Source: Candidatus Saccharimonadota bacterium (lineage in GTDB: Bacteria; Patescibacteriota; Saccharimonadia; UBA4664). From it: 64,000 bases of DNA. Under the pieces are notes generated by a model. The model searched no databases, had not been told where the DNA came from, and saw only the letters and a program-made list of their open reading frames with translations. The stretch covers positions 64,956 to 128,955 of the forward strand of contig JACAFG010000003.1 in the NCBI GenBank assembly GCA_019352195.1, written 5' to 3'. A program made the translations under genes and the position numbers. Positions 32,158 to 46,728 of this stretch are shown here, piece by piece (positions within the stretch are counted from its first letter, which is position 1; the number at the start of each line of letters is the position of its first letter).

Positions 32158-32541
32158 TTAGCTTTGAATCGAATGGGAGTTTAGCCAGTTCGAAATTTCT
32201 TTAACATCGATATGTTTGGTAGCGATTTCGACTGCATAATTTTCAATCTCACCTGCTGTTGCCCGAAATTCAAGCTCGTTAAGTCGAAGTAAGGTTAAAC
32301 CTGCAAGTATGGCCGTACGCTTATTACCATCGACAAATGGATGATCGGCGATAATCCCCCGAATAATGGCAGCAGATTTATCAGTAATATTAGCGTATAG
32401 CTCCTCACCGAAGACGTTTTGGGTTTGCGTAGCAACCGCCGACTCCAGCCTACCAAGGTCGCGCAAACCCGAAGCGCCGCCAGTTTCGGCTAGCACAAGT
32501 GCGTGGATCTCAAGCAAATGCTCGAGCGAAAGCACAATCAT
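32158..32541 (-). CDS. doc: Doc (Fic-family) toxin
   Basis: Fic motif HPFVDGNKRTA. 127 aa. Confidence 0.9.
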   Translation of the reverse strand: MIVLSLEHLLEIHALVLAETGGASGLRDLGRLESAVATQTQNVFGEELYANITDKSAAIIRGIIADHPFVDGNKRTAILAGLTLLRLNELEFRATAGEIENYAVEIATKHIDVKEISNWLNSHSIQS

Positions 32542-32759
32542 CGCTGAGAGAGATTATCAAAATCCTGCTTGTAGTCGTTCAAGATGCCACGAGCAGTAGC
32601 AATGACTTTCTGGTCATCACTGTTAGGAGAGTGGACAGGGCGGACGATTACTTCAACTTCGTCACCAATCGCAATATTCTGACGCTTTAGGTCTTTGGCA
32701 GGAATAGTGACGCCCCCGCTTGAACCGATTTTGATAATTTTTTGGATGCTTTGAATCAT
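32538..32759 (-). CDS. phd: Phd/AbrB-type antitoxin (SpoVT/AbrB swapped-hairpin N-terminus)
   Basis: 73 aa. MIQSIQKIIKIGSSGGVTIPAKDLKRQNI is an AbrB/MazE-like fold signature. Overlaps doc by 4 nt. Confidence 0.8.
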   Translation of the reverse strand: MIQSIQKIIKIGSSGGVTIPAKDLKRQNIAIGDEVEVIVRPVHSPNSDDQKVIATARGILNDYKQDFDNLSQR

Positions 32760-32764
32760 AGAAA

Positions 32765-32794
32765 TATTATAACGTTGTTATAATACTATGTCTA
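32765..32794 (-). promoter_or_regulatory. phd-doc promoter/operator: inverted repeat TATTATAAC-GTT-GTTATAATA overlapping -10 TATAAT; -35 TAGACA
   Basis: Inverted repeat at 32765-32785. The -10 sits 7 nt from the ATG, which implies a leaderless or very short-leader mRNA. Confidence 0.45.
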
Positions 32795-32968
32795 GACCTA
32801 TTTAGTGTGATCTGGATGAGACACATTCAATCAAAGACTATATAAGCCCTCCGTGGAGGTCTTATATTAGAATAATTGTTATTCAATTGTCTTAAATGAT
32901 GCTCTTGAACGACACCTGTTCAAACCCTTAGTTGCGTGGCTCGACCGAATAAGGATCTACTGGGTGAA

Positions 32969-33307
32969 TTAGCCGCTTACTAAACTTTCAATTAGTCCTT
33001 GCGTTTTAGATATGACATTATCGCTGGCCCTCTCCTCATACGCTGGTTTTCGAGCTCGCCAATCAACATTTTTGATCTGATCGGCAAGAACAGCTCCCTC
33101 CATTTTTTTGGACTTGACGCGGACTTCGAATGGATAGCCTTTGATCTTAGACGTTATCGGGCAGGCCAACATCATACCTGAGCGTTCGTTGTAATTTCGC
33201 GACGAAATCACCAGTGCAGGACGCGTGCCAGCCTGTTCGTGGCCAATCTGGGGGCTAAAATCAAACCACACAATGTCCCCGCGGGCGGGGACGTAGTCCG
33301 CTACCAT
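32969..33307 (-). CDS. mazF: MazF/PemK-family endoribonuclease toxin
   Basis: 112 aa. Start MVADYVPARGDIVWFDF...PALVIS matches the PemK/MazF N-terminal signature. Confidence 0.85.
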   Translation of the reverse strand: MVADYVPARGDIVWFDFSPQIGHEQAGTRPALVISSRNYNERSGMMLACPITSKIKGYPFEVRVKSKKMEGAVLADQIKNVDWRARKPAYEERASDNVISKTQGLIESLVSG

Positions 33308-33549
33308 ATTTCATTCCCGACAGGAGCGCCCCAGTCCATTTCGCCGTGAATGTTTTCAGGGGTGATGCCCTTCACTAAGTCGTCCAATGATAACCTGGGC
33401 TGCTCGTCGCGTTTGATGGTAGCCGTCGTGCCGTCGCTGGTAATTTCGACCTGACAATCACTGGATAGGCCGAGATCCCGCGCTACACGTGAGGGAATAC
33501 GGATAGCCAGACTATTGCCCCACATTTTGACTTGGGTGGTAGTTTTCAT
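33301..33549 (-). CDS. mazE: MazE/PemI-type antitoxin
   Basis: 82 aa. WGNSLAIRIPSRVARDLGL is a SpoVT/AbrB MazE hallmark. Overlaps mazF by 7 nt. Confidence 0.8.
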   Translation of the reverse strand: MKTTTQVKMWGNSLAIRIPSRVARDLGLSSDCQVEITSDGTTATIKRDEQPRLSLDDLVKGITPENIHGEMDWGAPVGNEIW

Positions 33550-33595: not shown

Positions 33596-33644
33596 TGTCA
33601 ATGCAAAAATGTGGAAAACGTAGTTGATTGGCAGAATATCGAAT

Positions 33645-33680
33645 ATCAAAATAAGCGCTTGGTTAAGCGCTTATTTTGAT
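33645..33680. terminator. Perfect 16-bp-stem hairpin ATCAAAATAAGCGCTT-ggtt-AAGCGCTTATTTTGAT
   Basis: Read directly. A/T-rich ends make it a plausible bidirectional terminator/insulator. Confidence 0.5.
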
Positions 33681-33840
33681 AATTTAATTTTCTAAATTGG
33701 TGCAGCTGAAGATAAAAGTTTTGAACCACATCTTACAGATATGGCTGACTGGTTTATAGATAATCCGGCGACTGATTGGCGGCAACGTTTAAGGGAGGCT
33801 GCCAAAGCGTCGCGTGATATTACATATTCCTACTAAACCA

Positions 33841-33868
33841 CTGGGGCTGTGGTCGGATTTTCGAACCT
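33841..33868. repeat. Direct repeat copy 1 (CTGGGGCTGTGGTCGGATTT + TCGAACCT)
   Basis: 20/20 identical to 34501-34520, with 6 of the next 7-8 positions conserved. Flanks the PD-(D/E)xK gene. Confidence 0.6.
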
Positions 33869-33920
33869 TTGCAGCTCCTCTAGAACGTACAAGTCTAATG
33901 AGGGGAAGAGCCTTGTTAAC

Positions 33921-34466
33921 CTAAGGTGCGTCAGGAAATATATCTTCACTATTGGGCGTAGTGGACGTACTTCGAACTTTTGACGTTGCAGTTTGGTTAA
34001 CTCTTGGTTCAAAATCTTTCAAAATCTGTAGGTATTCTAATTGAAGGGCATCCGGTATTTCTGCGAGCGGCGAAATGTTACCATTTTCAAGTATTATCTT
34101 GGTTATCTCGTCAAAATAAAATCCATCGAGAGTCGCAATAAATAAATATGATGGGTTCCACGAGGCATTCATCTTATTTGCCCGAGCTAGAACGTCGTTT
34201 GTATCTAGCCTCCAACGGTATTTAACCTCGATGAGTCGCACTTCTTTTGTATCTAGATTAATTACTGCAAAGTCGGGCGCAACACGGAGACTTTCAATAA
34301 TGGGGTTGTCATGGTTATAGTATTGACCTACCAATTGGGGGACTACCTTTTCGTACCCAAACTCAATTACAGTGTACCTACCGTTATGGCGAAACATTTG
34401 TGCGAATATTGTTTCAGCTATTCTGCCCTTAACGAGGTTCCTGGTGAAATCTATGTTTTCGCTCAT
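33921..34466 (-). CDS. PD-(D/E)xK nuclease-fold protein (restriction endonuclease-like)
   Basis: Motif ...APDFAVINLDTKEVRLIEVKYR (PD...E-V-K). 181 aa. Confidence 0.6.
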   Translation of the reverse strand: MSENIDFTRNLVKGRIAETIFAQMFRHNGRYTVIEFGYEKVVPQLVGQYYNHDNPIIESLRVAPDFAVINLDTKEVRLIEVKYRWRLDTNDVLARANKMNASWNPSYLFIATLDGFYFDEITKIILENGNISPLAEIPDALQLEYLQILKDFEPRVNQTATSKVRSTSTTPNSEDIFPDAP

Positions 34467-34500
34467 AGCTAAAATTCTAACACGTAGCGTTCATGTTTGG

Positions 34501-34527
34501 CTGGGGCTGTGGTCGGATTTCCGACCT
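34501..34527. repeat. Direct repeat copy 2 (CTGGGGCTGTGGTCGGATTT + CCGACCT); contains hairpin GGTCGG-attt-CCGACC
   Basis: Exactly 660 bp from copy 1. Confidence 0.6.
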
Positions 34528-34572
34528 ATTGAAGCTGTACCAGATTCTCCGTCGGCCAAGAGGGTGGCAACC

Positions 34573-34977
34573 TTATTGTCTCGCTAATTGTTGCTTATCG
34601 AGTTCGGTTTCAATAAATCCCCTATACGGCGGAATGTTGCAGGTTGTAATAATATTCTTTATTTGAAGCGTCGTGAACGGTCGTCCGCCTTGATATTTAT
34701 AGTTAATTAGCTCGATGGTCGGGAATGAAAATCGCGCATCAAGCTCCCGCCCCTCGTGCTGAATATGAAAGTGGCTTCCGTGGTCGTTCGAGTGAACAAC
34801 TATCTTGATTCCATTTCCGAATCTTTTTGAGGCTTCTTTGTTGATTACATTGCCAGTTGGCAGCTCGCGTGTCGTCTCAATCGCATTATTCAAGTGGTCT
34901 AGAAATAATGCCTCAATGTCGAGCTTTGATTGTTCGGGCATATTGCCTCCAATTGTTACAAATCTAGCTCTGGCCAC
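34573..34977 (-). CDS. Hypothetical protein, DUF4160-like (HxxHFH motif)
   Basis: HSNDHGSHFHIQ motif. The likely start is the ATG at 34941 (SD GGAGG), giving 122 aa. Last gene of the XRE-led operon. Confidence 0.5.
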   Translation of the reverse strand: MARARFVTIGGNMPEQSKLDIEALFLDHLNNAIETTRELPTGNVINKEASKRFGNGIKIVVHSNDHGSHFHIQHEGRELDARFSFPTIELINYKYQGGRPFTTLQIKNIITTCNIPPYRGFIETELDKQQLARQ

Positions 34978-35753
34978 AGATGCTTAACGTCGCGCTTATA
35001 TTGGTCGATAGCTATTCTTGTTTTTTGCATTTGTGCAGATGCAGAGAGCTTAACAGATAGTAGCTCGCTTGTTGTGCTTACTTGCGCATAAGCCTTATGA
35101 AATAGAAGTTGTGCTTCTATCAAAATACCTAAAGTGCCAGCAGTCATCTGATGGTTGGGTTGATTAAAGATGTTTAGCGTAACGCCCGTGTCCGTGCTAC
35201 TGAAATTACCTCGTAAAAACCCTGCGCTCTGATGCGAACCATATTCATTCAGCCCATCTTTTAGCCGCTTAATTTCGTCGCTCAAGTCAGCATCATATTC
35301 ATTAAGAATCTTCACGGCCATTTCTTTTAGCTTTTCATCGTTTTTATTAGTTTTCCGGCTCTTGTCGTTAAATAACGCATACATGGGCGCTGGTGAGCAG
35401 AGGATGCTTAAGGATATAGTAAAATTCTCCACCGCAAATCGAAGCTGAGATAGTGCCTGTGCGTAGTGCTTCCTCATTACGGATGTAATAACCAAGTATC
35501 CAGCCTCATCAGCTTGAGCCTTGTAGGCTATGCTTAGTTGAGCCATAGCCTTTAGATTCTCGAAATAATTGGGAGTGAAGATGGATTGCCACGCTTCGAT
35601 AGACAAATCAAGTATTGGCTTTTCGTGCTTGTAACTTTCGGAAAGCAATCCATGCTCATTATCAATAAGTTGGCGAAAATCTTTATCCATGTGACTGCTC
35701 TCCACTCCCAAGAAGCATTGGGGGGTGCAACTCAGGGTATATTGCGTAAACAT
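34956..35753 (-). CDS. Hypothetical protein (~244-265 aa)
   Basis: Tightly packed between neighbours. The likely start is the internal Met (MDKDF...) at 35690. No motif recognised. Confidence 0.5.
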   Translation of the reverse strand: MFTQYTLSCTPQCFLGVESSHMDKDFRQLIDNEHGLLSESYKHEKPILDLSIEAWQSIFTPNYFENLKAMAQLSIAYKAQADEAGYLVITSVMRKHYAQALSQLRFAVENFTISLSILCSPAPMYALFNDKSRKTNKNDEKLKEMAVKILNEYDADLSDEIKRLKDGLNEYGSHQSAGFLRGNFSSTDTGVTLNIFNQPNHQMTAGTLGILIEAQLLFHKAYAQVSTTSELLSVKLSASAQMQKTRIAIDQYKRDVKHLWPELDL

Positions 35754-37140
35754 CGTGCAGAATCCATTTCGTCAGCCTTGTCGCATCGAGTAATACATCA
35801 GCGTATGACCGCTCCCCCTCGACATTGGGTAGCAGGTGGAACCGATGCAAAGGGTTTGTGCAGACCATGAACACCTCTCTTCGAATCGCGCCCCATTGGC
35901 CGTGGGTGTAGTGTGACGGCCAGTCATAAAATGTATCGTAAATATCTTTCTCGTCGGCCTTTATCGCTCTATCGCGTAAGTTTGCGTCTTCCCAGTCCCC
36001 TAAGTTGATGCTATTAAATTCCATCCATCTGTCCTCATTGGCTTGCAGAAAAATATCGTCAATATCGACGAAAGTGAATTGTACGCCCGTATTCATCAGT
36101 TTTAGTAAAACTTTCTTTGCCTCGCCGGTTCCGTGGTTTCTGAATGATGCCCAGACTTCCTCTGGTGCGGAACGTAAATATGAGATATTGATGCTCACCT
36201 CAGTTAAGGTACGCAGCGCAAGACGGCCGAGAATGCCGGTGCGCGAGGCTTCATTATCGAGCAATTCATCCAGAATTTTAACCGCAAATAAGCCGGTTCC
36301 TACCGCAATATCAAGTTTTATGTCTTTCTTGTAGCTGCCAATGATATTACGTAGGAGAAACAGCTTTCGTCGTTCATGGCGGATGAAATCAGCCGTATCC
36401 TGAGTAGTGAAGCGTTCTTCATGAGGCGCTCCATAGTCATTTACAAAGCATTCTGTTGATTCAAAGCATCCCTCCCAAAAACTATCAGCCCAGTCGGAAT
36501 GTTGTACCCCCATATCGAACGCTATTTCCATAGAACGAATTGAGGGGCGGGTTTTACGCATATCCGCCACATCTGGATAGTCCAGAATGTCGTAGGGTGT
36601 TGAGCTGCGATGAATGAACGTTATTTTGTTGCTAATCATACCTATGTAGCACTTCGCCCATCGGCAGTCCGTTGCCTCTTGGGATTGATGGTCTAGTGTC
36701 TTGTGAATAGTTAGGCCAAGAGCCTCTCCGTCTGCCTGGTAATCGGGTTCTTCGTTAATGGCGGCTTTCCAGAGGTTATATTGAGGTAAATCTTCGAATA
36801 ATAATAACGGGCGTAGTGCGATGCGATGCTCGCGCGTAGAGCAAATGAAGTTGATTATACGTTCTGCCTTATCGTGCTCAATAGAGCCGAGATTTGTTAG
36901 CTCGATTGAGTTAATTCCCTGATACTCAAATTCATTGAGAATCGGTTTCAATACGTCCGTAAACGTTTGAAGCGCGTAAATGTTTCGTAGTAACGCCACC
37001 CATAAGACTTCGGGCAACGCCCTATCAAACCATGAGCGGTTGGTGAACGGGATTTCCGCGAATGAGCCAACAAGTTTATTTCGCTTCTTTTTTTGCTTGT
37101 TGAGCGGCGTAAAATTCAGATGCTTATAGCGGTCATTCAT
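35683..37140 (-). CDS. Hypothetical 485-aa protein with a Rossmann/MTase motif-I-like segment (KLDIAVGTGLFAV) but no motif IV
   Basis: Begins 10 nt after the XRE stop. No other family signal. Confidence 0.55.
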   Translation of the reverse strand: MNDRYKHLNFTPLNKQKKKRNKLVGSFAEIPFTNRSWFDRALPEVLWVALLRNIYALQTFTDVLKPILNEFEYQGINSIELTNLGSIEHDKAERIINFICSTREHRIALRPLLLFEDLPQYNLWKAAINEEPDYQADGEALGLTIHKTLDHQSQEATDCRWAKCYIGMISNKITFIHRSSTPYDILDYPDVADMRKTRPSIRSMEIAFDMGVQHSDWADSFWEGCFESTECFVNDYGAPHEERFTTQDTADFIRHERRKLFLLRNIIGSYKKDIKLDIAVGTGLFAVKILDELLDNEASRTGILGRLALRTLTEVSINISYLRSAPEEVWASFRNHGTGEAKKVLLKLMNTGVQFTFVDIDDIFLQANEDRWMEFNSINLGDWEDANLRDRAIKADEKDIYDTFYDWPSHYTHGQWGAIRREVFMVCTNPLHRFHLLPNVEGERSYADVLLDATRLTKWILHDVYAIYPELHPPMLLGSGEQSHG

Positions 37141-37149
37141 TTGTACATT

Positions 37150-37449
37150 TTACCCCTTAATGCGATACGGTGAGGCATGGGATGATTTTAGTGATACCAG
37201 CTCTGCAATCGGCACTCGCAGCTTTTGGCAAAGTGCCAAAACCTCGCGCAGCGTAATCTCTGGGTTCTCTCCCCTTTCAATTGCGTATAGCTTCTCAACT
37301 GATATGAATAAGCGCCTGGCAAGCTCCGCAGGTTCCCATTTTTGCTCAATTCTGGCGCGTTTGACCCTGCGCCCCAAATCAACTATCTCTGGATAATATG
37401 CCATTTCGGTTCCCCCTAATCCGCAGAGTATACCGAACATAGACCGCAC
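37150..37449 (-). CDS. XRE-family HTH transcriptional regulator
   Basis: HTH ...AELARRLFISVEKLYAIERGENPEITLREVLALCQKL. The likely start is MAYYPE at 37404 (SD AGGGGGAA). Confidence 0.75.
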   Translation of the reverse strand: MRSMFGILCGLGGTEMAYYPEIVDLGRRVKRARIEQKWEPAELARRLFISVEKLYAIERGENPEITLREVLALCQKLRVPIAELVSLKSSHASPYRIKG

Positions 37450-39989: not shown

Positions 39990-40199
39990 GTGACGGGAGA
40001 AATGATAGTGAACCAGCAGTATTTAACAATCGAAGAAGTGGCAGAAATGCTGCGTGTTAAAAGCACTACGGTGACTGCCTGGTGTAGGGCAGGAAAGCTG
40101 ACGGCATTCAAGCAGCCTGGGGGGAAACGCTGGCTAGTCAACGCTAAAGAACTCAGTGCCATGCAAAAGCAGCAGACAAAGAGCCACGGCAATGCTTAA
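39990..40199 (+). CDS. xis: Excisionase/MerR-like HTH DNA-binding protein
   Basis: LTIEEVAEMLRVKSTTVTAWCRAGKL is an excisionase-family HTH. GTG start after AAAGG. Confidence 0.7.
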   Translation: MTGEMIVNQQYLTIEEVAEMLRVKSTTVTAWCRAGKLTAFKQPGGKRWLVNAKELSAMQKQQTKSHGNA

Positions 40200-41058
40200 T
40201 GCGCACCTTGAAGCATTTCTATCTCACCTCGTGCAGGGTCGCGGTTTATCCGTTGCCACCCAAGCGGCCTATCGTTTCGAGTTAAGCAGATTCATTACGT
40301 TCGTAATGGATTCGGGAGTTGACGACCCCACGCTCGTAACATCAAACAGTATTGCGGATTACCTAGAGGGCATGACTGTAGCCCCTCCGACAAAGGCTCG
40401 TGCGAGAAGTGCAATAAAGTCGTTCTTTAGTTACCTTATCAAGCGCAAAGTGGTGGTGCTCGACCCCACGGTAAATCTCGACACTATCAAACTACCCATC
40501 AAGAGAAGCCCTTACCTTGTGAGGCGTGATTGGGAGCGCCTGTTAGCCGTGATTGAACAATCTGCCACCCCATACTTTCGCCAGCGCGACCTAACCTTGG
40601 TTCAGCTATTATTGATGACGGGGTTACGCCGTGGGGAAGTAGTGCGGCTCAAAGTGCAGGATATAGACCTCGACGAACTTATTATTCTCGTTACCCGCAA
40701 AGGTGGCTCAGAGGGCGTTGTGCCAATCCACCCTGAGCTTGCCAAGACACTCAGAGTGTATCTAGCGGGTACGATGGGCAAGCCGCATGAAGCACTGTTT
40801 ATGAGTAAACTTGGCAGCGCGTTATCGGCTGCTTCGGTCTGGCATATCGTTAAGCACTATGCAGGGCTAGCCGAATTGGATAGCAAATTAACTGTTCATA
40901 GCCTACGCCACAGCTTCGCGAGCCACCTGCTAGACCAAAACGTCGCACTCCCCCATATCCAAGGATTGCTCGGACACCGCAGCCCAGCCACGACAAGCAG
41001 GTACGTACACTTCAATAATCGTCAATTAGCGGCAGCTTTAACGAGCGTTAACTTCTAG
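40156..41058 (+). CDS. Tyrosine recombinase/integrase (XerC/D-like)
   Basis: C-terminal catalytic R...HxxR...Y (HSLRHSFASHLL...TTSRYVH). The likely start is the ATG at 40192, overlapping the xis stop. Confidence 0.9.
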   Translation: MPCKSSRQRATAMLNAHLEAFLSHLVQGRGLSVATQAAYRFELSRFITFVMDSGVDDPTLVTSNSIADYLEGMTVAPPTKARARSAIKSFFSYLIKRKVVVLDPTVNLDTIKLPIKRSPYLVRRDWERLLAVIEQSATPYFRQRDLTLVQLLLMTGLRRGEVVRLKVQDIDLDELIILVTRKGGSEGVVPIHPELAKTLRVYLAGTMGKPHEALFMSKLGSALSAASVWHIVKHYAGLAELDSKLTVHSLRHSFASHLLDQNVALPHIQGLLGHRSPATTSRYVHFNNRQLAAALTSVNF

Positions 41059-42643: not shown

Positions 42644-43567
42644 TTAAATAGCGAGGTCGAGCGGTAGGTCGCTAATATCTTTTAGGCGCTTACCCTCAAC
42701 CATGATATTCATTAGCTCAATTGAATCTTCGTTTCCAAGCGACTTGACCGCTTCCATCAACTCATAGAGAGCAAAGTGATAAACGCAATCAATATCGCCA
42801 GTACCCAGAGCTAGGGATGAAAGCCGACTAGGCAGCGGTTCGCCGGTAACGACCATGATATGCGGCAAATTGCCTTTGCGGTTGCGGATTAGATTTAACG
42901 CCTCAGACCGGCTATTCTGCGCTCTATCCGAACGCATTGTCCATTTGGCAGAAATCGAAGCGTGAAGCAGAGCCTCACCGCCGTTGCTCTTTCGTAAATC
43001 TGCCCTCAATGAAACAGAATCATCAACTAATTTTTCGTCGCTATTTATTTCTTCATCGGTTACCAGCTCGCGGGATATAACAATGTCGGGTGTAATTGTG
43101 TAGTCGCGTCCAAGGGCAACTGCTAAATCGGGATTGGTCATAGCCGCCTCTTTGAGGGCGATTAAATGCTTGTACTGCTCAAAACCCGCAATACCCTTAA
43201 CGCTCTTGTTGCCTATTTTTGAGATGGTAAATTCGCCTGGCCGTAGGCTGCCAAGGTGATGGAACGTAGCCTTTACAAAACTCGCGACAATTTCTTCAAA
43301 TTGACTACCACTTGTTTGCCCTGCAAGCTTCTCGTGTGTTTCAGACACAAGAAATTTAGCAATGTGTCCCGCGATTGCGATACTAGCCCCGTTTCCTTTG
43401 TCAGCATTTGAGGCAACCCCGTTCTCATCTATCGACAGGATTGTTTCAAGCAGCCGAGCGTGAAAGTTTTTCCGCTCACGAGCAATTAACACTTGCTCGT
43501 CTATGTTAGTCATTGGGACTTTGGGTATTTTCGGCATATTCTCGTCAGGTACTAAAGCGTCAGACAT
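42644..43567 (-). CDS. Type II restriction endonuclease (partner of the upstream m5C methyltransferase)
   Basis: Overlaps the methyltransferase stop by 8 nt. 307 aa with a PD...E-x-K-like segment. Family not assignable. Confidence 0.6.
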   Translation of the reverse strand: MSDALVPDENMPKIPKVPMTNIDEQVLIARERKNFHARLLETILSIDENGVASNADKGNGASIAIAGHIAKFLVSETHEKLAGQTSGSQFEEIVASFVKATFHHLGSLRPGEFTISKIGNKSVKGIAGFEQYKHLIALKEAAMTNPDLAVALGRDYTITPDIVISRELVTDEEINSDEKLVDDSVSLRADLRKSNGGEALLHASISAKWTMRSDRAQNSRSEALNLIRNRKGNLPHIMVVTGEPLPSRLSSLALGTGDIDCVYHFALYELMEAVKSLGNEDSIELMNIMVEGKRLKDISDLPLDLAI

Positions 43568-44555
43568 TACTTACTTCCTTTACTGTATTTAGTTTAACTG
43601 CACTAGCATCTTCCGACGCGTAGATAGCATCGGCAATCGCTTCTCCAACCGCTCGCGCAACTGGCGGCGGGAAAGCATTACCAATCTGGCGATAGGCGGC
43701 AGTTTTGCGACCTGCGAACAGCCATTCGTCAGGAAAGCCCTGAACACGAGCAGCCATCCGAACTGTAAGCTTCGGCAGCCCCTCATGGCCGATTCCTGGA
43801 ATGTCATCACTAATTCCCTTGCCGTTAACGCCCAACAACTCCCAAGCTGCTTTAGCTCGTGTAGGGCCGAGGTCAGGGCCGCCATGCTTTTTACTTCCGC
43901 CAACCAATGTAGGCGCAACTTTGTTAGCGAGCAAACGCCATTCGTCGGCTTTCTCCCAACCTTGGCTTGCCATCAAATCATGCAATGCCTCGCCTACCGT
44001 AACTTGCTTCGAATTGCCTATCGGCCATACAAAATACGGGAATATTTCTTTTTTTAGTGCCACCAATATAGCGCGGGGGCGAAGCTGCGGAACCCCAAAA
44101 TCTGAGGCGTTTAAAAGCTTCCACTCGCCCTGGTAGCCCATCTCATCAAGCTTATCGAGAATCTCTTTTCGATAGTCTATGAATCCTTTCGACATAAGCC
44201 CTTTGACGTTTTCGAGTAATACGGCACGAGGGTTTAATTCAGATACGAGGCGTAGGGCTGAGGGGAATAAATCTCTTTCGTCATCTGCGCCGAGCTGTTT
44301 TCCTGCAACAGAAAAGGGAGGGCATGGAACGCCGCCAGCAAACAAATCTACTCCCTCATATCCTTTGCCAGACATCTTTTTAACATCTGCAACAACAACA
44401 TTCCATTCCGGTCTGTTGAGAAGCAATGTTTCGCAGAATTGTGGCTCAATCTCGGCAACTAAAGTATGCTCGAAACCCGCAAGCTCCAAGCCTAGTGCTT
44501 GGCCGCCAGCCCCTGCACAAATCTCGATAGATGTTAATTTCTTCCTCTTTGCCAT
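43560..44555 (-). CDS. DNA (cytosine-5)-methyltransferase
   Basis: Motif I (CAGAGG), PC motif GGVPCPPFS, ENV motif LLENVKG. Confidence 0.9.
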   Translation of the reverse strand: MAKRKKLTSIEICAGAGGQALGLELAGFEHTLVAEIEPQFCETLLLNRPEWNVVVADVKKMSGKGYEGVDLFAGGVPCPPFSVAGKQLGADDERDLFPSALRLVSELNPRAVLLENVKGLMSKGFIDYRKEILDKLDEMGYQGEWKLLNASDFGVPQLRPRAILVALKKEIFPYFVWPIGNSKQVTVGEALHDLMASQGWEKADEWRLLANKVAPTLVGGSKKHGGPDLGPTRAKAAWELLGVNGKGISDDIPGIGHEGLPKLTVRMAARVQGFPDEWLFAGRKTAAYRQIGNAFPPPVARAVGEAIADAIYASEDASAVKLNTVKEVSNV

Positions 44556-45106: not shown

Positions 45107-46696
45107 ATGTTAAGCCAAGAACCAGTAGACCTTACAAAACTTCGTTATGTACTTTATGCCCGTAAATCGACGGATGATAATAACCGCCAGGTTCGGTCTG
45201 TTCCCGACCAAATTAGAGATTGCCAGAAACTGGCAGATAGCATGGGGCTACGGGTTGTTAATATTATCCGAGAGAAAAAATCGGCTAAAAAGCCCAAAGA
45301 ACGAACCGAATTTACGCAGATGCTGCGTGACCTAGAAGCAAAGAAGTACGATGGGATTTTGTGCTGGCATCCAGACCGACTATGCCGCAATATGCTCGAA
45401 GGCGGCGAAATCATCAATATGCTTGATGAGGGGGTAATCAAGGATATTAGGTTTCATAGTCATCAATTTAGCAACGATGCCAATGGCAAGATGCTACTCG
45501 GTATGTTATTCGTCTTCTCGAAACAATATTCCGACGACCTTTCAGCAAAGGTAAGCCGAGGGGTTCAGGGCAACTTTGTTGAGGGTAAATCATCAGGAAC
45601 ACCAAAATGGGGCTACGACCGCGAAGATACCACAGGGCTTTACGAGCCGAACGATTCATTTGATTTGATTACTGAGGCTTGGAAAAGACGTGCGAGCGGC
45701 CAGACGCTTCAGCAAATTTTAGATTTTCTCCTTGAGAGCGGCTATCAACGAGTAACTAAAGATAAGCGCCACCGCATTATCAAGCCAAATATTAACGCGC
45801 TGAGCATACTGTTTCGTGACCCGTTCTATTATGGGAAGTTAATCCAGGCAAATCAGGAAGTTGACCTGCGTGAAATATATAACTTTGAAGCGATGATAGA
45901 TGAGGCGACTTTTAACGCTGTGCAGGTGATTGGTTATGGCAGGACGCAAGATGTCCACCCCAAGAAACGAGCGACTTTCTATCCGCTACATCGCTTTGTT
46001 TATTGTGCCATCTGCAATGACCCTAAGCCTATGTCTGTTGGGAAGAATAGAAATGGCAGCGGTCAGCACGTTCTGTCGTATCGTTGCGATAACCCTACCT
46101 GCACTCGCAAGCCCAAATCTATGAGGGCGAAAAATATCTTCAGCTCAATATATGTGATGTTAGAACGGTTTGAGCTGTCAGACGATGCCTACGACCGCTA
46201 CAGCCGCAGTATAGATAGTATGACCGACTCAAAGCTCGTGCGGCTCAAGCAGGACATACTGAGCCGTAGAGGAGCCTTAACGCACATCAAGAGCGAGCTT
46301 AGTGAACGAGCTTTGAAAATCGGACTAATTGATACCGACTCACCCACCTATAAAATTAACGAGAAACGTGTGAACGAGCTTGCCTTGCAACAGGGGGAGC
46401 TTGAAGATGCGATTAGCAGGATTCAAGAAAAGATTGTCGACCCCCAACGAATCAAGCTAGGCAAAGTTGAGTTTTTGAACTTGGTAAAAAACGCCTCTGC
46501 CAAGCTTAAAGCTGGGTCTGCCGTCGAGAAAGACGCACTATGCCGAATTTTGTTCTTGAACGTACGAGTTGATAGCGAAAAAGTGGTCGATTATATCTGG
46601 AGGGAGCCTTTTGCTAGTCTCGTAAAAGTAGTTGAATTATCAATTGGTGCGGATGATAGGAATCGAACCTACACGTCTTGCGACACCAGTACCTAA
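45107..46696 (+). CDS. Large serine recombinase (integrase)
   Basis: N-terminal resolvase catalytic motif YARKSTDD...R. 529 aa. The 3' end overlaps the tRNA-Leu 3' half by about 50 nt. Confidence 0.88.
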   Translation: MLSQEPVDLTKLRYVLYARKSTDDNNRQVRSVPDQIRDCQKLADSMGLRVVNIIREKKSAKKPKERTEFTQMLRDLEAKKYDGILCWHPDRLCRNMLEGGEIINMLDEGVIKDIRFHSHQFSNDANGKMLLGMLFVFSKQYSDDLSAKVSRGVQGNFVEGKSSGTPKWGYDREDTTGLYEPNDSFDLITEAWKRRASGQTLQQILDFLLESGYQRVTKDKRHRIIKPNINALSILFRDPFYYGKLIQANQEVDLREIYNFEAMIDEATFNAVQVIGYGRTQDVHPKKRATFYPLHRFVYCAICNDPKPMSVGKNRNGSGQHVLSYRCDNPTCTRKPKSMRAKNIFSSIYVMLERFELSDDAYDRYSRSIDSMTDSKLVRLKQDILSRRGALTHIKSELSERALKIGLIDTDSPTYKINEKRVNELALQQGELEDAISRIQEKIVDPQRIKLGKVEFLNLVKNASAKLKAGSAVEKDALCRILFLNVRVDSEKVVDYIWREPFASLVKVVELSIGADDRNRTYTSCDTST

Positions 46697-46728
46697 AACT
46701 GGCGTGTCTACCATTTCACCACATCCGC
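46645..46728 (-). tRNA. tRNA-Leu (anticodon TAG), type II with long variable arm, CCA encoded
   Basis: Manual fold: GCGGATG acceptor, GTGGTGAAATGGTAGACAC D-arm, anticodon loop TTTAGGT, variable hairpin GTC-GCAA-GAC, T-loop TTCGATT. Confidence 0.8.

Follow-up and report, generated by a model that had tools for sequence, protein, structure and literature searches.

Att repeats are the trace of site-specific integration at the 3' ends of tRNA genes. In Dehalococcoides, tandem islands at ssrA, the gene of the tmRNA, carry 20-bp direct repeats of the ssrA 3' end, and strain VS possesses 11 such repeats downstream of ssrA, scattered among accessory genes (PMC2764846). For elements that are integrative and conjugative (ICEs) or integrative and mobilizable (IMEs), accretion has been defined together with cis-mobilizable elements (CIMEs), which are integrase-less remnants of tRNA-site integration or accretion, and which are regarded as decayed ICEs or IMEs of several kb (PMC5704250). 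In the present study, we analyzed a pair of direct repeats that bracket the gene of a PD-(D/E)xK-type nuclease in 64,000 nucleotides of DNA from a Candidatus Saccharimonadota bacterium (assembly GCA_019352195.1, contig JACAFG010000003.1, positions 64,956 to 128,955), hereafter called the window and numbered from its first letter. Both repeats represent an element specific to Saccharibacteria that is always oriented with the genes. In its 3' portion this element consists of the tRNA-Gln 3' end, and its 5' portion is either T-arm-like or a conserved, element-borne arm, AAGTTCGAAGTACGTCCACTA. The explanation that we regard as probable is that these tRNA-Gln-derived, att-type repeats bound a small, CIME-like nuclease module lacking an integrase, which would have arisen through site-specific integration and tandem accretion.

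The 20-mer CTGGGGCTGTGGTCGGATTT occurs on the plus strand at two exact sites, 33841-33860 and 34501-34520; nothing else in the window matches it with three or fewer mismatches, and 100 dinucleotide-preserving shuffles gave 0 matches. Ungapped extension of the pair yields 36 nt that are 86% identical, the two starts being 660 apart, as given in the preliminary description of this DNA, but the similarity past the 20-mer is patchy and the 27 bp reported there do not form an exact repeat. Between the copies there is, as had been stated, just one sizeable open reading frame (ORF), that of the nuclease. Every gene between 32158 and 37449 is encoded on the minus strand, and the repeats are therefore best read in the same direction. 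In this reading the features of the locus are, from left to right, as follows.

34498..34536, minus strand: element copy U (copy 2 of the preliminary description), AGCTTCAATAGGTCGGAAATCCGACCACAGCCCCAG plus CCA, i.e., AGCTTCAATAGGTCGGAAATCCGACCACAGCCCCAG joined to CCAAACATG...; left boundary of the nuclease module
34467..34497, minus strand: right arm and promoter of the module, CCAAACATGAACGCTACG, then TGTTAGAAT (extended -10, 34482-34474), 7 nt, and ATG
33921..34466, minus strand: PD-(D/E)xK-type ORF of 181 aa; HJC99_03300 of the Candidatus Saccharibacteria metagenome-assembled genome (MAG) GCA_017884045.1
33952..33979, minus strand: element copy D1, a third and diverged copy, AAGTTCGAAGTACGTCCACTA followed by the decayed core CGCCCAA
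33877..33951, minus strand: gene-less spacer of 75 nt between D1 and D2, with no homology to any fetched locus
33841..33876, minus strand: element copy D2 (copy 1 of the preliminary description), AGCTGCAAAGGTTCGAAAATCCGACCACAGCCCCAG joined to TGGTTTAG, the latter in place of CCAA

U is composed of a T-arm-like hairpin and a core that matches the acceptor strand of tRNA-Gln, G73, and CCA; D2 shares this subtype and forms the following att-like site of the array. D1, which had been overlooked when two copies were taken as the complete set, lies at 33979-33952 within the 3' end of the extended ORF. It shows 0 edits against the consensus arm of the element family, was detected with E values of 3.6e-4 and 1.6e-5 in two profile searches with nhmmer, and contains a 26-mer match for which 0 occurrences are expected by chance. 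The source genome contains only these three copies, all at the nuclease gene, in the window plus 20 kb of another contig, and within that coverage the distribution, for which a check against repetitive extragenic palindromic (REP)-like repeats had been proposed, shows no REP pattern. When CTGGGGCTGTGGTCGGATTT was searched for in a 596-Gb collection of genome contigs, which evidently does not contain the source genome, a single match was obtained in a Verrucomicrobiales MAG, in apparently coding DNA without a tRNA; as about one match is expected for a 20-mer in 596 Gb, it was rejected as a chance match.

The extent of the module became clear from comparison with related loci. The sample comprises 80 metagenomic loci with nuclease homologues, designated by L numbers, whose neighboring genes are highly variable. 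The conserved module spans 34504-33952 (553 bp) and is 93% identical to L003 and 87% identical to L005, while the flanks are unrelated. The homology to these loci starts between ..CCAG and CCAA, in the last 3-4 nt of U (34504), and ends in D1 directly after GTCCACTA, at 33952-33953. The placement of the module ends at the two exact repeats is, therefore, right for the core of U but wrong for D2, because the conserved module stops at D1, and the 660-bp bracket is two successive sites of the same subtype around the nuclease module and a short remnant without genes. The 75-nt spacer may be what is left of another module. The nuclease is the only coding content of the 553-660-bp unit, which contains no integrase. 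A single-gene mobile cassette with target duplication or att sites had been proposed for this unit; the boundaries are indeed of the att type, but duplication of an arbitrary target does not agree with them. The GC content of the module is 39-41%, against 47-50% in its immediate flanks, about 46% in the surrounding low-GC island, and 54-56% in the regions flanking the island. The sequence TGTTAGAAT is a predicted promoter of the nuclease gene itself, and the mRNA is probably leaderless or nearly so. The stretch formed by the promoter and the right arm is kept 5' of the gene in L003, L005, L020, L084, L089, and L092. Comparison of L086 with the upstream copy of L013 (L013U) shows that the right-arm stretch is homologous to the native sequence after tRNA-Gln genes, and in L086 the right arm (AGCATAAGCATTATAAATAGAT..., with a hairpin) is itself the native sequence 3' of tRNA-Gln.

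The origin of the core is indicated by L096, which represents an empty site. Its crcB gene is 99% identical to that of L005, and the position occupied in L005 by the element and the nuclease gene is taken in L096 by an intact tRNA-Gln(TTG) gene, 5' of a fluoride riboswitch, that ends in CTGCCGCCCCAGCCA / ...GCAGGTTCGAATCCTGCCGCCCCAGCCA. The sequence following the tRNA gene, aaggatacacaagaagtaaagac... (aaggatacac...), is the same as that past both element cores in L005. This pair of empty and occupied sites identifies the element core as the tRNA-Gln 3' end. In U and D2, the core AGCCCCAG(CCA) likewise matches CGCCCCAGCCA, the 3' end of the L096 tRNA-Gln(TTG), and the last 11 nt of U, AGCCCCAGCCA, agree with that end at 10 of 11 positions; on sequence grounds, the core CCCCAGCCA is the acceptor strand, G73, and CCA of tRNA-Gln. 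The left arms of the upstream copies in L003 and L021 have exact tRNA spacing (GTTCGAATCC + 3 + 7 + G + CCA), and tRNA-Gln genes are situated 262 nt (L074) and 694 nt (L086) upstream of the nuclease gene. The L005 module lies between tRNA-Gln-derived sequence and a fluoride riboswitch 5' of crcB (1269-1332; 41.6 bits, over the gathering score), which was the only Rfam match when the region was searched at E <= 10 and eight related loci at E <= 1.

Elements of this family, about 35-50 nt in length and on the gene strand, were found beside nuclease homologues in about 13 loci. Iterated nhmmer searches gave no gain in sensitivity, and a hand-curated alignment, fuzzy regular expressions, and a trimmed nhmmer model were used. 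The consensus reads aAAGTT(n)CGAAGnnCGTCCACTA, a variable G/C-rich 5-mer, and aGCCAa, often followed by GCATAAGCATTAT. All 30 matches of the trimmed model at E <= 5 in 460 kb are on the gene strand and 0 are on the opposite one. The left arm of 19-21 nt is near-identical across many genomes despite unrelated flanks, which suggests a constraint imposed by protein recognition. In L005, L012/13, L084, L092, and L089/L094, which belong to the clade closest to the gene of the window, the gene has the element on either side, and the distances from its start and stop codons are similar. Additional copies exist in L013, L005, L015, L066, and L092; one of them, L005 3778-3812, is of the U subtype, identical to U at 32 of 35 nt (91%), and follows an unrelated hydrolase gene with no adjoining nuclease gene. 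Rows of sites are best seen in L094, where at least eight are found in 9 kb after many unrelated genes and where the six measured sites begin 17-35 nt past a stop codon; among the genes flanked there are SIR2, which has the opposite orientation, a BrnTA region, OmdA, and APH. L013 has four copies in 1.7 kb. Hybrid copies, which have only the left arm or only the right arm in common with others, also occur. Between CCACTA and AGCCA, the central 5-6 nt exist in a G-rich form (GGGGG, AGGGC, CGGGGC) and a C-rich form (TCCCC, GCCCC), and the two, exemplified by L094b, L092D, and L013D and by L005D, L092c, and L013U, respectively, are roughly complementary. Scanning of viral contigs with the element gave no match.

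Several side observations were made in the arrays. The AAGCATAAGCAT module at L094 6150-6215 is inverted. In L011, a two-gene module on the minus strand separates an element copy (78-112) from the nuclease gene and is flanked by a different direct repeat of 43-80 nt, AGTCTTACGAAAAGGTTAAACCCTTACATCTGTAAATAATTGT..., at 140-215 and 1281-1355; insertions in these genomes thus appear generally to have long direct repeats at their flanks. A small PLD-family gene with an HxK motif occurs near the nuclease module in L005 (2-271), L013 (76-222), L015, and L010, being immediately upstream and divergent in the first two, and may be a conserved anchor or partner of the arrays.

The hybrid sites, the breakpoints at a single core, the tRNA 3'-end target, the strict orientation, and the rows of copies together give the layout of tRNA-site integration plus accretion, and the module is found in unrelated neighborhoods with breakpoints at the element cores. 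We propose, as the probable course of events, that site-specific recombination would insert DNA at the tRNA-Gln 3' end, leaving att repeats, and that repeated integration beside earlier insertions would produce rows of small modules with one repeat each. The nuclease gene with its own promoter would then constitute the 553-bp module between the U core and D1, and D2 would be the next site of the row; this order of events is our reconstruction. Since the module does not encode a recombinase, it would have to be moved in trans, in the manner of a CIME, presumably by a tyrosine integrase, for which a Xer-like enzyme encoded 5.7 kb away is a candidate. Recombination between U and D2 would be expected to leave AGGTCGGAAATCCGACCACAGCCCCAG joined to TGGTTTAG (also written AGGTCGGAAATCCGACCACAGCCCCAG joined to TGGTTTAGTAGG) at the excised chromosome and AGGTTCGAAAATCCGACCACAGCCCCAG joined to CCAAACATG (also written AGGTTCGAAAATCCGACCACAGCCCCAG joined to CCAAACATGAACG) in the circle.

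Several points weigh against this proposal. No integrase was seen next to the fetched arrays, and the element lacks the dyad symmetry expected of the core site of a tyrosine recombinase. All loci were reached via the nuclease gene, so that the association of gene and element is biased by ascertainment, and the central 5-mer alternates between G-rich and C-rich forms. U and D2 resemble a T arm plus acceptor strand, but are 3-5 nt longer than the real 3' end of the tRNA, and neither ARAGORN nor Rfam recognized them as tRNA fragments; relaxed ARAGORN searches for a pseudo-tRNA returned nothing at -ps and only noise at -ps70. The window contains tRNA-Asp, tRNA-Arg, and tRNA-Leu genes but no tRNA-Gln gene, and no intact target tRNA stands at an end of the insertion. 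For the window locus no empty site was found, its 122-aa upstream neighbor being an orphan; the genome of a crcB relative of 84% identity, which has a different arrangement, was uninformative. Moreover, the comparison of L005 with L096 fits homologous, Campbell-type recombination equally well.

Such recombination is the basis of an alternative that we consider unlikely, though worth serious attention: modules might be exchanged by RecA-dependent homologous recombination, for which the tRNA-Gln-derived repeats together with the downstream flank would serve as portable homology, via a route such as natural transformation or Campbell-type insertion of circles. L005 agrees with this idea in that 47 nt plus a further block of the native downstream flank of tRNA-Gln are duplicated on both sides of the module, and the lack of an integrase adjoining the arrays and of dyad symmetry or conserved structure in the element would also be natural. 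It does not account well, however, for the near-identity of the 19-21-nt left arm amid unrelated flanks, which suggests protein recognition, or for breakpoints that fall at the same few bases (CCCCAG) in several loci.

Equally doubtful is a cassette system of an integron-like kind proper to Saccharibacteria, in which co-oriented arrays of mostly single genes would be anchored at tRNA-Gln, a linear, tRNA-Gln-derived site would lie 17-37 nt past the stop codon, and the PD-(D/E)xK (TnsA/RecU-like) protein would be either part of the machinery or the founding cassette. The nuclease gene is directly at an element site in several loci. The tyrosine recombinase of the window finds its best matches in XerD/XerC-type models (184 bits against XerD) and scores 90 bits against the integron-integrase model TIGR02249, whose cut-off is 265. 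The element was also considered as an attC site or a structured RNA, and both were rejected because it has no conserved structure and folds no better than shuffles: RNAalifold predicted 0 conserved pairs for 27 copies, none of which is palindromic, and single-stranded DNA folding of both strands gave z values of -0.9 to +0.4.

The nuclease itself might be supposed to be the mobility enzyme. Its E18, D65 (in APDF), E80, and K82 (in IEVKYR) show no variation among 30 sequences and form an E...PD...ExK arrangement, and the AlphaFold2 model, with an overall predicted local distance difference test (pLDDT) value of 81, has an alpha-beta-beta-beta-alpha-beta order of secondary structures and is matched by Foldseek to influenza PA-N endonuclease, RecU, and Hjc (E ~1e-3, TM ~0.4). 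Both the signature residues and the predicted fold, thus, agree with the earlier assignment to the PD-(D/E)xK superfamily, of which the protein is, as judged from sequence and model, a member; no finer placement holds. Searches of Pfam, NCBIfam, PADLOC, and PDB sequences with the window protein gave no match over cut-off. Below threshold, the best Pfam relation is to the TnsA-like endonuclease N-terminal domain (PF08722), seen for 25 of the 30 family members, and 10 members also show one to VRR_NUC, but the best E value for PF08722 among the 30 is 4e-4 and the window protein scores 13 bits against a gathering threshold of 26.5; membership in a Tn7 TnsA-like family was, therefore, rejected. The ORF of the window is longer than most of its relatives: the ancestral stop codon at 33986-33984, TAG in L003, is replaced by ACG, and the last 21 codons (33921-33983) are a stop-loss extension read across D1; pLDDT values are below 50 for residues 157-181. 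The family comprises at least 662 homologues, mostly of 155-160 aa, and the few with source names are from Saccharibacteria/Patescibacteria; no relatives were found in the viral, phage, and plasmid collections searched with the protein. In the coding sequence, third codon positions account for 21 of the 25 differences from L003, showing that the gene is under purifying selection.

The possibility that this protein acts as a free-standing homing endonuclease or TnsA-like enzyme, cutting tRNA-Gln-like sites and copying or inserting its own gene, appears improbable. The nuclease fold with its invariant catalytic residues, the sub-threshold leaning of most members toward the TnsA-like domain, the position of the gene directly at an element or tRNA-Gln site in many loci, and the existence of occupied and empty alleles are in its favor. 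Most relatives (~60% identity, ~157 aa), however, are found in ordinary operon-like contexts without the element, the same element bounds many other genes, homing makes no direct repeats, and the Pfam scores are far under the cut-off. Nothing in the data supports self-mobilization by this nuclease, which had been called a stand-alone mobile one. A second paralogue in the same genome (L087 10001-10474, contig JABBYD010000010.1, 63% identity) is directly preceded by the genes for a helicase-PLD protein and for an AAA_15/AAA_21/DUF4435 (OLD-like) ATPase and is followed by two genes with Mtd_N domains, and the nuclease gene of L092 is likewise 3' of an AAA_15/21 ATPase gene; the nuclease may be functionally tied to ATPase-based defense systems. 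Short GCCAAGCAT(G/A)AGC motifs are present downstream of the L087 paralogue on the opposite strand. This paralogue locus is also present on a contig from sequencing run SRR11551193 of the source sample. The homologue at L027 2923-3471, which resembled tandem gene copies, is actually one disrupted gene broken into two ORFs of 79 and 91 aa.

Slightly more remote still is a role of the element at the RNA level, as a 3'-untranslated-region motif, a tRNA-like processing signal, or a terminator module of accessory genes. Its location 17-37 nt past stop codons, often with a hairpin and T-run terminator 5-30 nt further on, and its constant placement on the sense strand of the array would fit this idea, and a terminator-like element had indeed been suggested in the preliminary description. 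The hairpin GGTCGG-ATTT-CCGACC pointed out there for U is real as a predicted 6-bp stem, yet it is energetically unremarkable, the folding energy of the repeat region being close to that of shuffles (z -0.5 to -0.9), and the stem is absent from D2 and not conserved in related copies. The repeats have no U-run, and a scan for promoters and terminators placed no terminator at them. An RNA function is also at odds with the 0 pairs found by RNAalifold, the SIR2 gene of L094, which is on the minus strand but flanked by plus-strand copies, the one-arm hybrid copies, the breaks of interlocus homology at the core, and the fact that the empty site is a tRNA-Gln gene. Chance similarity or purely local duplication, which would be compatible with the presence of only two exact copies in the window, is effectively refuted by the expectation of 0 and by family-wide homologous copies at equivalent positions, with homology breakpoints, in about 13 independent loci.

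The surroundings of the module are rich in accessory genes.

32158-33549, minus strand: MazE/MazF and Phd(AbrB-type)/Doc(Fic), adjacent type II toxin-antitoxin pairs, downstream of the nuclease gene
34956-35753, minus strand: 244/265-aa protein after the DitA gene, followed by an orphan 122-aa protein
35683-37140, minus strand: DUF5677 protein (PADLOC DitA, E = 2.4e-66)
37150-37449, minus strand: helix-turn-helix regulator before the DitA gene
39990-41058, plus strand: Xer-like recombinase with an HTH_17 (excisionase-like) partner
40156..41058, plus strand: Xer-like tyrosine recombinase, 5.7 kb from the module, divergent, in the same low-GC island
42644-44555, minus strand: NgoMIV-type restriction-modification pair
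46645-46728, minus strand: tRNA-Leu(TAG), near the end of the low-GC stretch

Contrary to the earlier placement of the nuclease gene between two toxin-antitoxin modules, MazEF and Phd/Doc are both on its downstream side, each with a strong sigma-70-like promoter (11/12 matches, at 33601-33573 and 32794-32766), and on its upstream side are the orphan 122-aa gene and then the DitA/DUF5677 gene. DitA is a component of the Aditi anti-phage system, and its gene may form an Aditi-like defense operon with those of the helix-turn-helix regulator and the 244/265-aa and 122-aa proteins; no DitB match was found. No repeat of the tRNA-Leu 3' end that could mark an island border is present in the window. 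A 31-codon ORF on the plus strand (33741-33836) ends 4 nt short of D2, and a bidirectional, terminator-like hairpin with a 17-bp stem (33644-33681) lies between this ORF and the MazE promoter.

The mobile elements of Saccharibacteria and other bacteria of the candidate phyla radiation are little characterized, and our full-text literature search for integrons, cassettes, and repeats in these organisms found no description of such arrays. The present findings point to the 3' end of tRNA-Gln as a hotspot of integration or exchange in these bacteria, where a signature of 35-50 nt marks the borders of small accessory or defense modules. Such a signature could serve to trace gene flux across reduced genomes and could aid in finding the recombinase and in testing whether the single-gene arrays differ from integrons. 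They also draw attention to a conserved, uncharacterized family of PD-(D/E)xK proteins that in some loci is encoded beside defense-type genes.

How the arrays relate to known systems can be summarized as follows. With PD-(D/E)xK nucleases such as the TnsA N-terminal domain, RecU, Hjc, and PA-N, the encoded protein shares the E...PD...ExK residues and the alpha-beta-beta-beta-alpha-beta core, but it gives no sequence match over cut-off and TM-scores of only ~0.4. REP sequences, bacterial interspersed mosaic elements, and miniature inverted-repeat transposable elements would be expected as many, usually palindromic copies dispersed over unrelated loci in both orientations; the copies found here are all in one orientation (30/30) and none is palindromic, and the 64 kb + 20 kb of the source genome covered contain three, all at the nuclease gene. 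Integron cassettes are similar in that the modules are co-oriented and mostly of single genes, with a site-like repeat near the stop codons, toxin-antitoxin or defense cargo, and, in the window, a divergent tyrosine recombinase gene in the same island; they differ in that attC sites form imperfect palindromes or hairpins, whereas the present element does not, the integrase is not IntI, the gene has its own promoter, and the site derives from a tRNA 3' end. CIMEs likewise keep attL- and attR-like repeats without integration and transfer genes, in composite islands targeted to a tRNA 3' end; they are, however, regarded as decayed ICEs or IMEs of several kb, while here a putatively mobilizable 553-bp single-gene module is conserved as such in several genomes. 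The Dehalococcoides ssrA islands are alike in having a recurrent t(m)RNA 3'-end repeat among accessory genes and low-GC insertions in a small, streamlined genome. In contrast to them, the repeat source here is tRNA-Gln, no integrase block is seen beside the arrays, the copies of the window are not beside the tRNA gene itself, and the modules, often single genes of 0.5-1 kb, have the repeat 17-37 nt past the stop codon. As a kind of feature, therefore, this locus belongs with what is already known of att repeats from t(m)RNA 3' ends, of accretion, and of CIMEs, and it is unusual in the absence of an adjacent integrase, in its Saccharibacterium host, and in its very compact, often single-gene modules with the site shortly past the stop codon.

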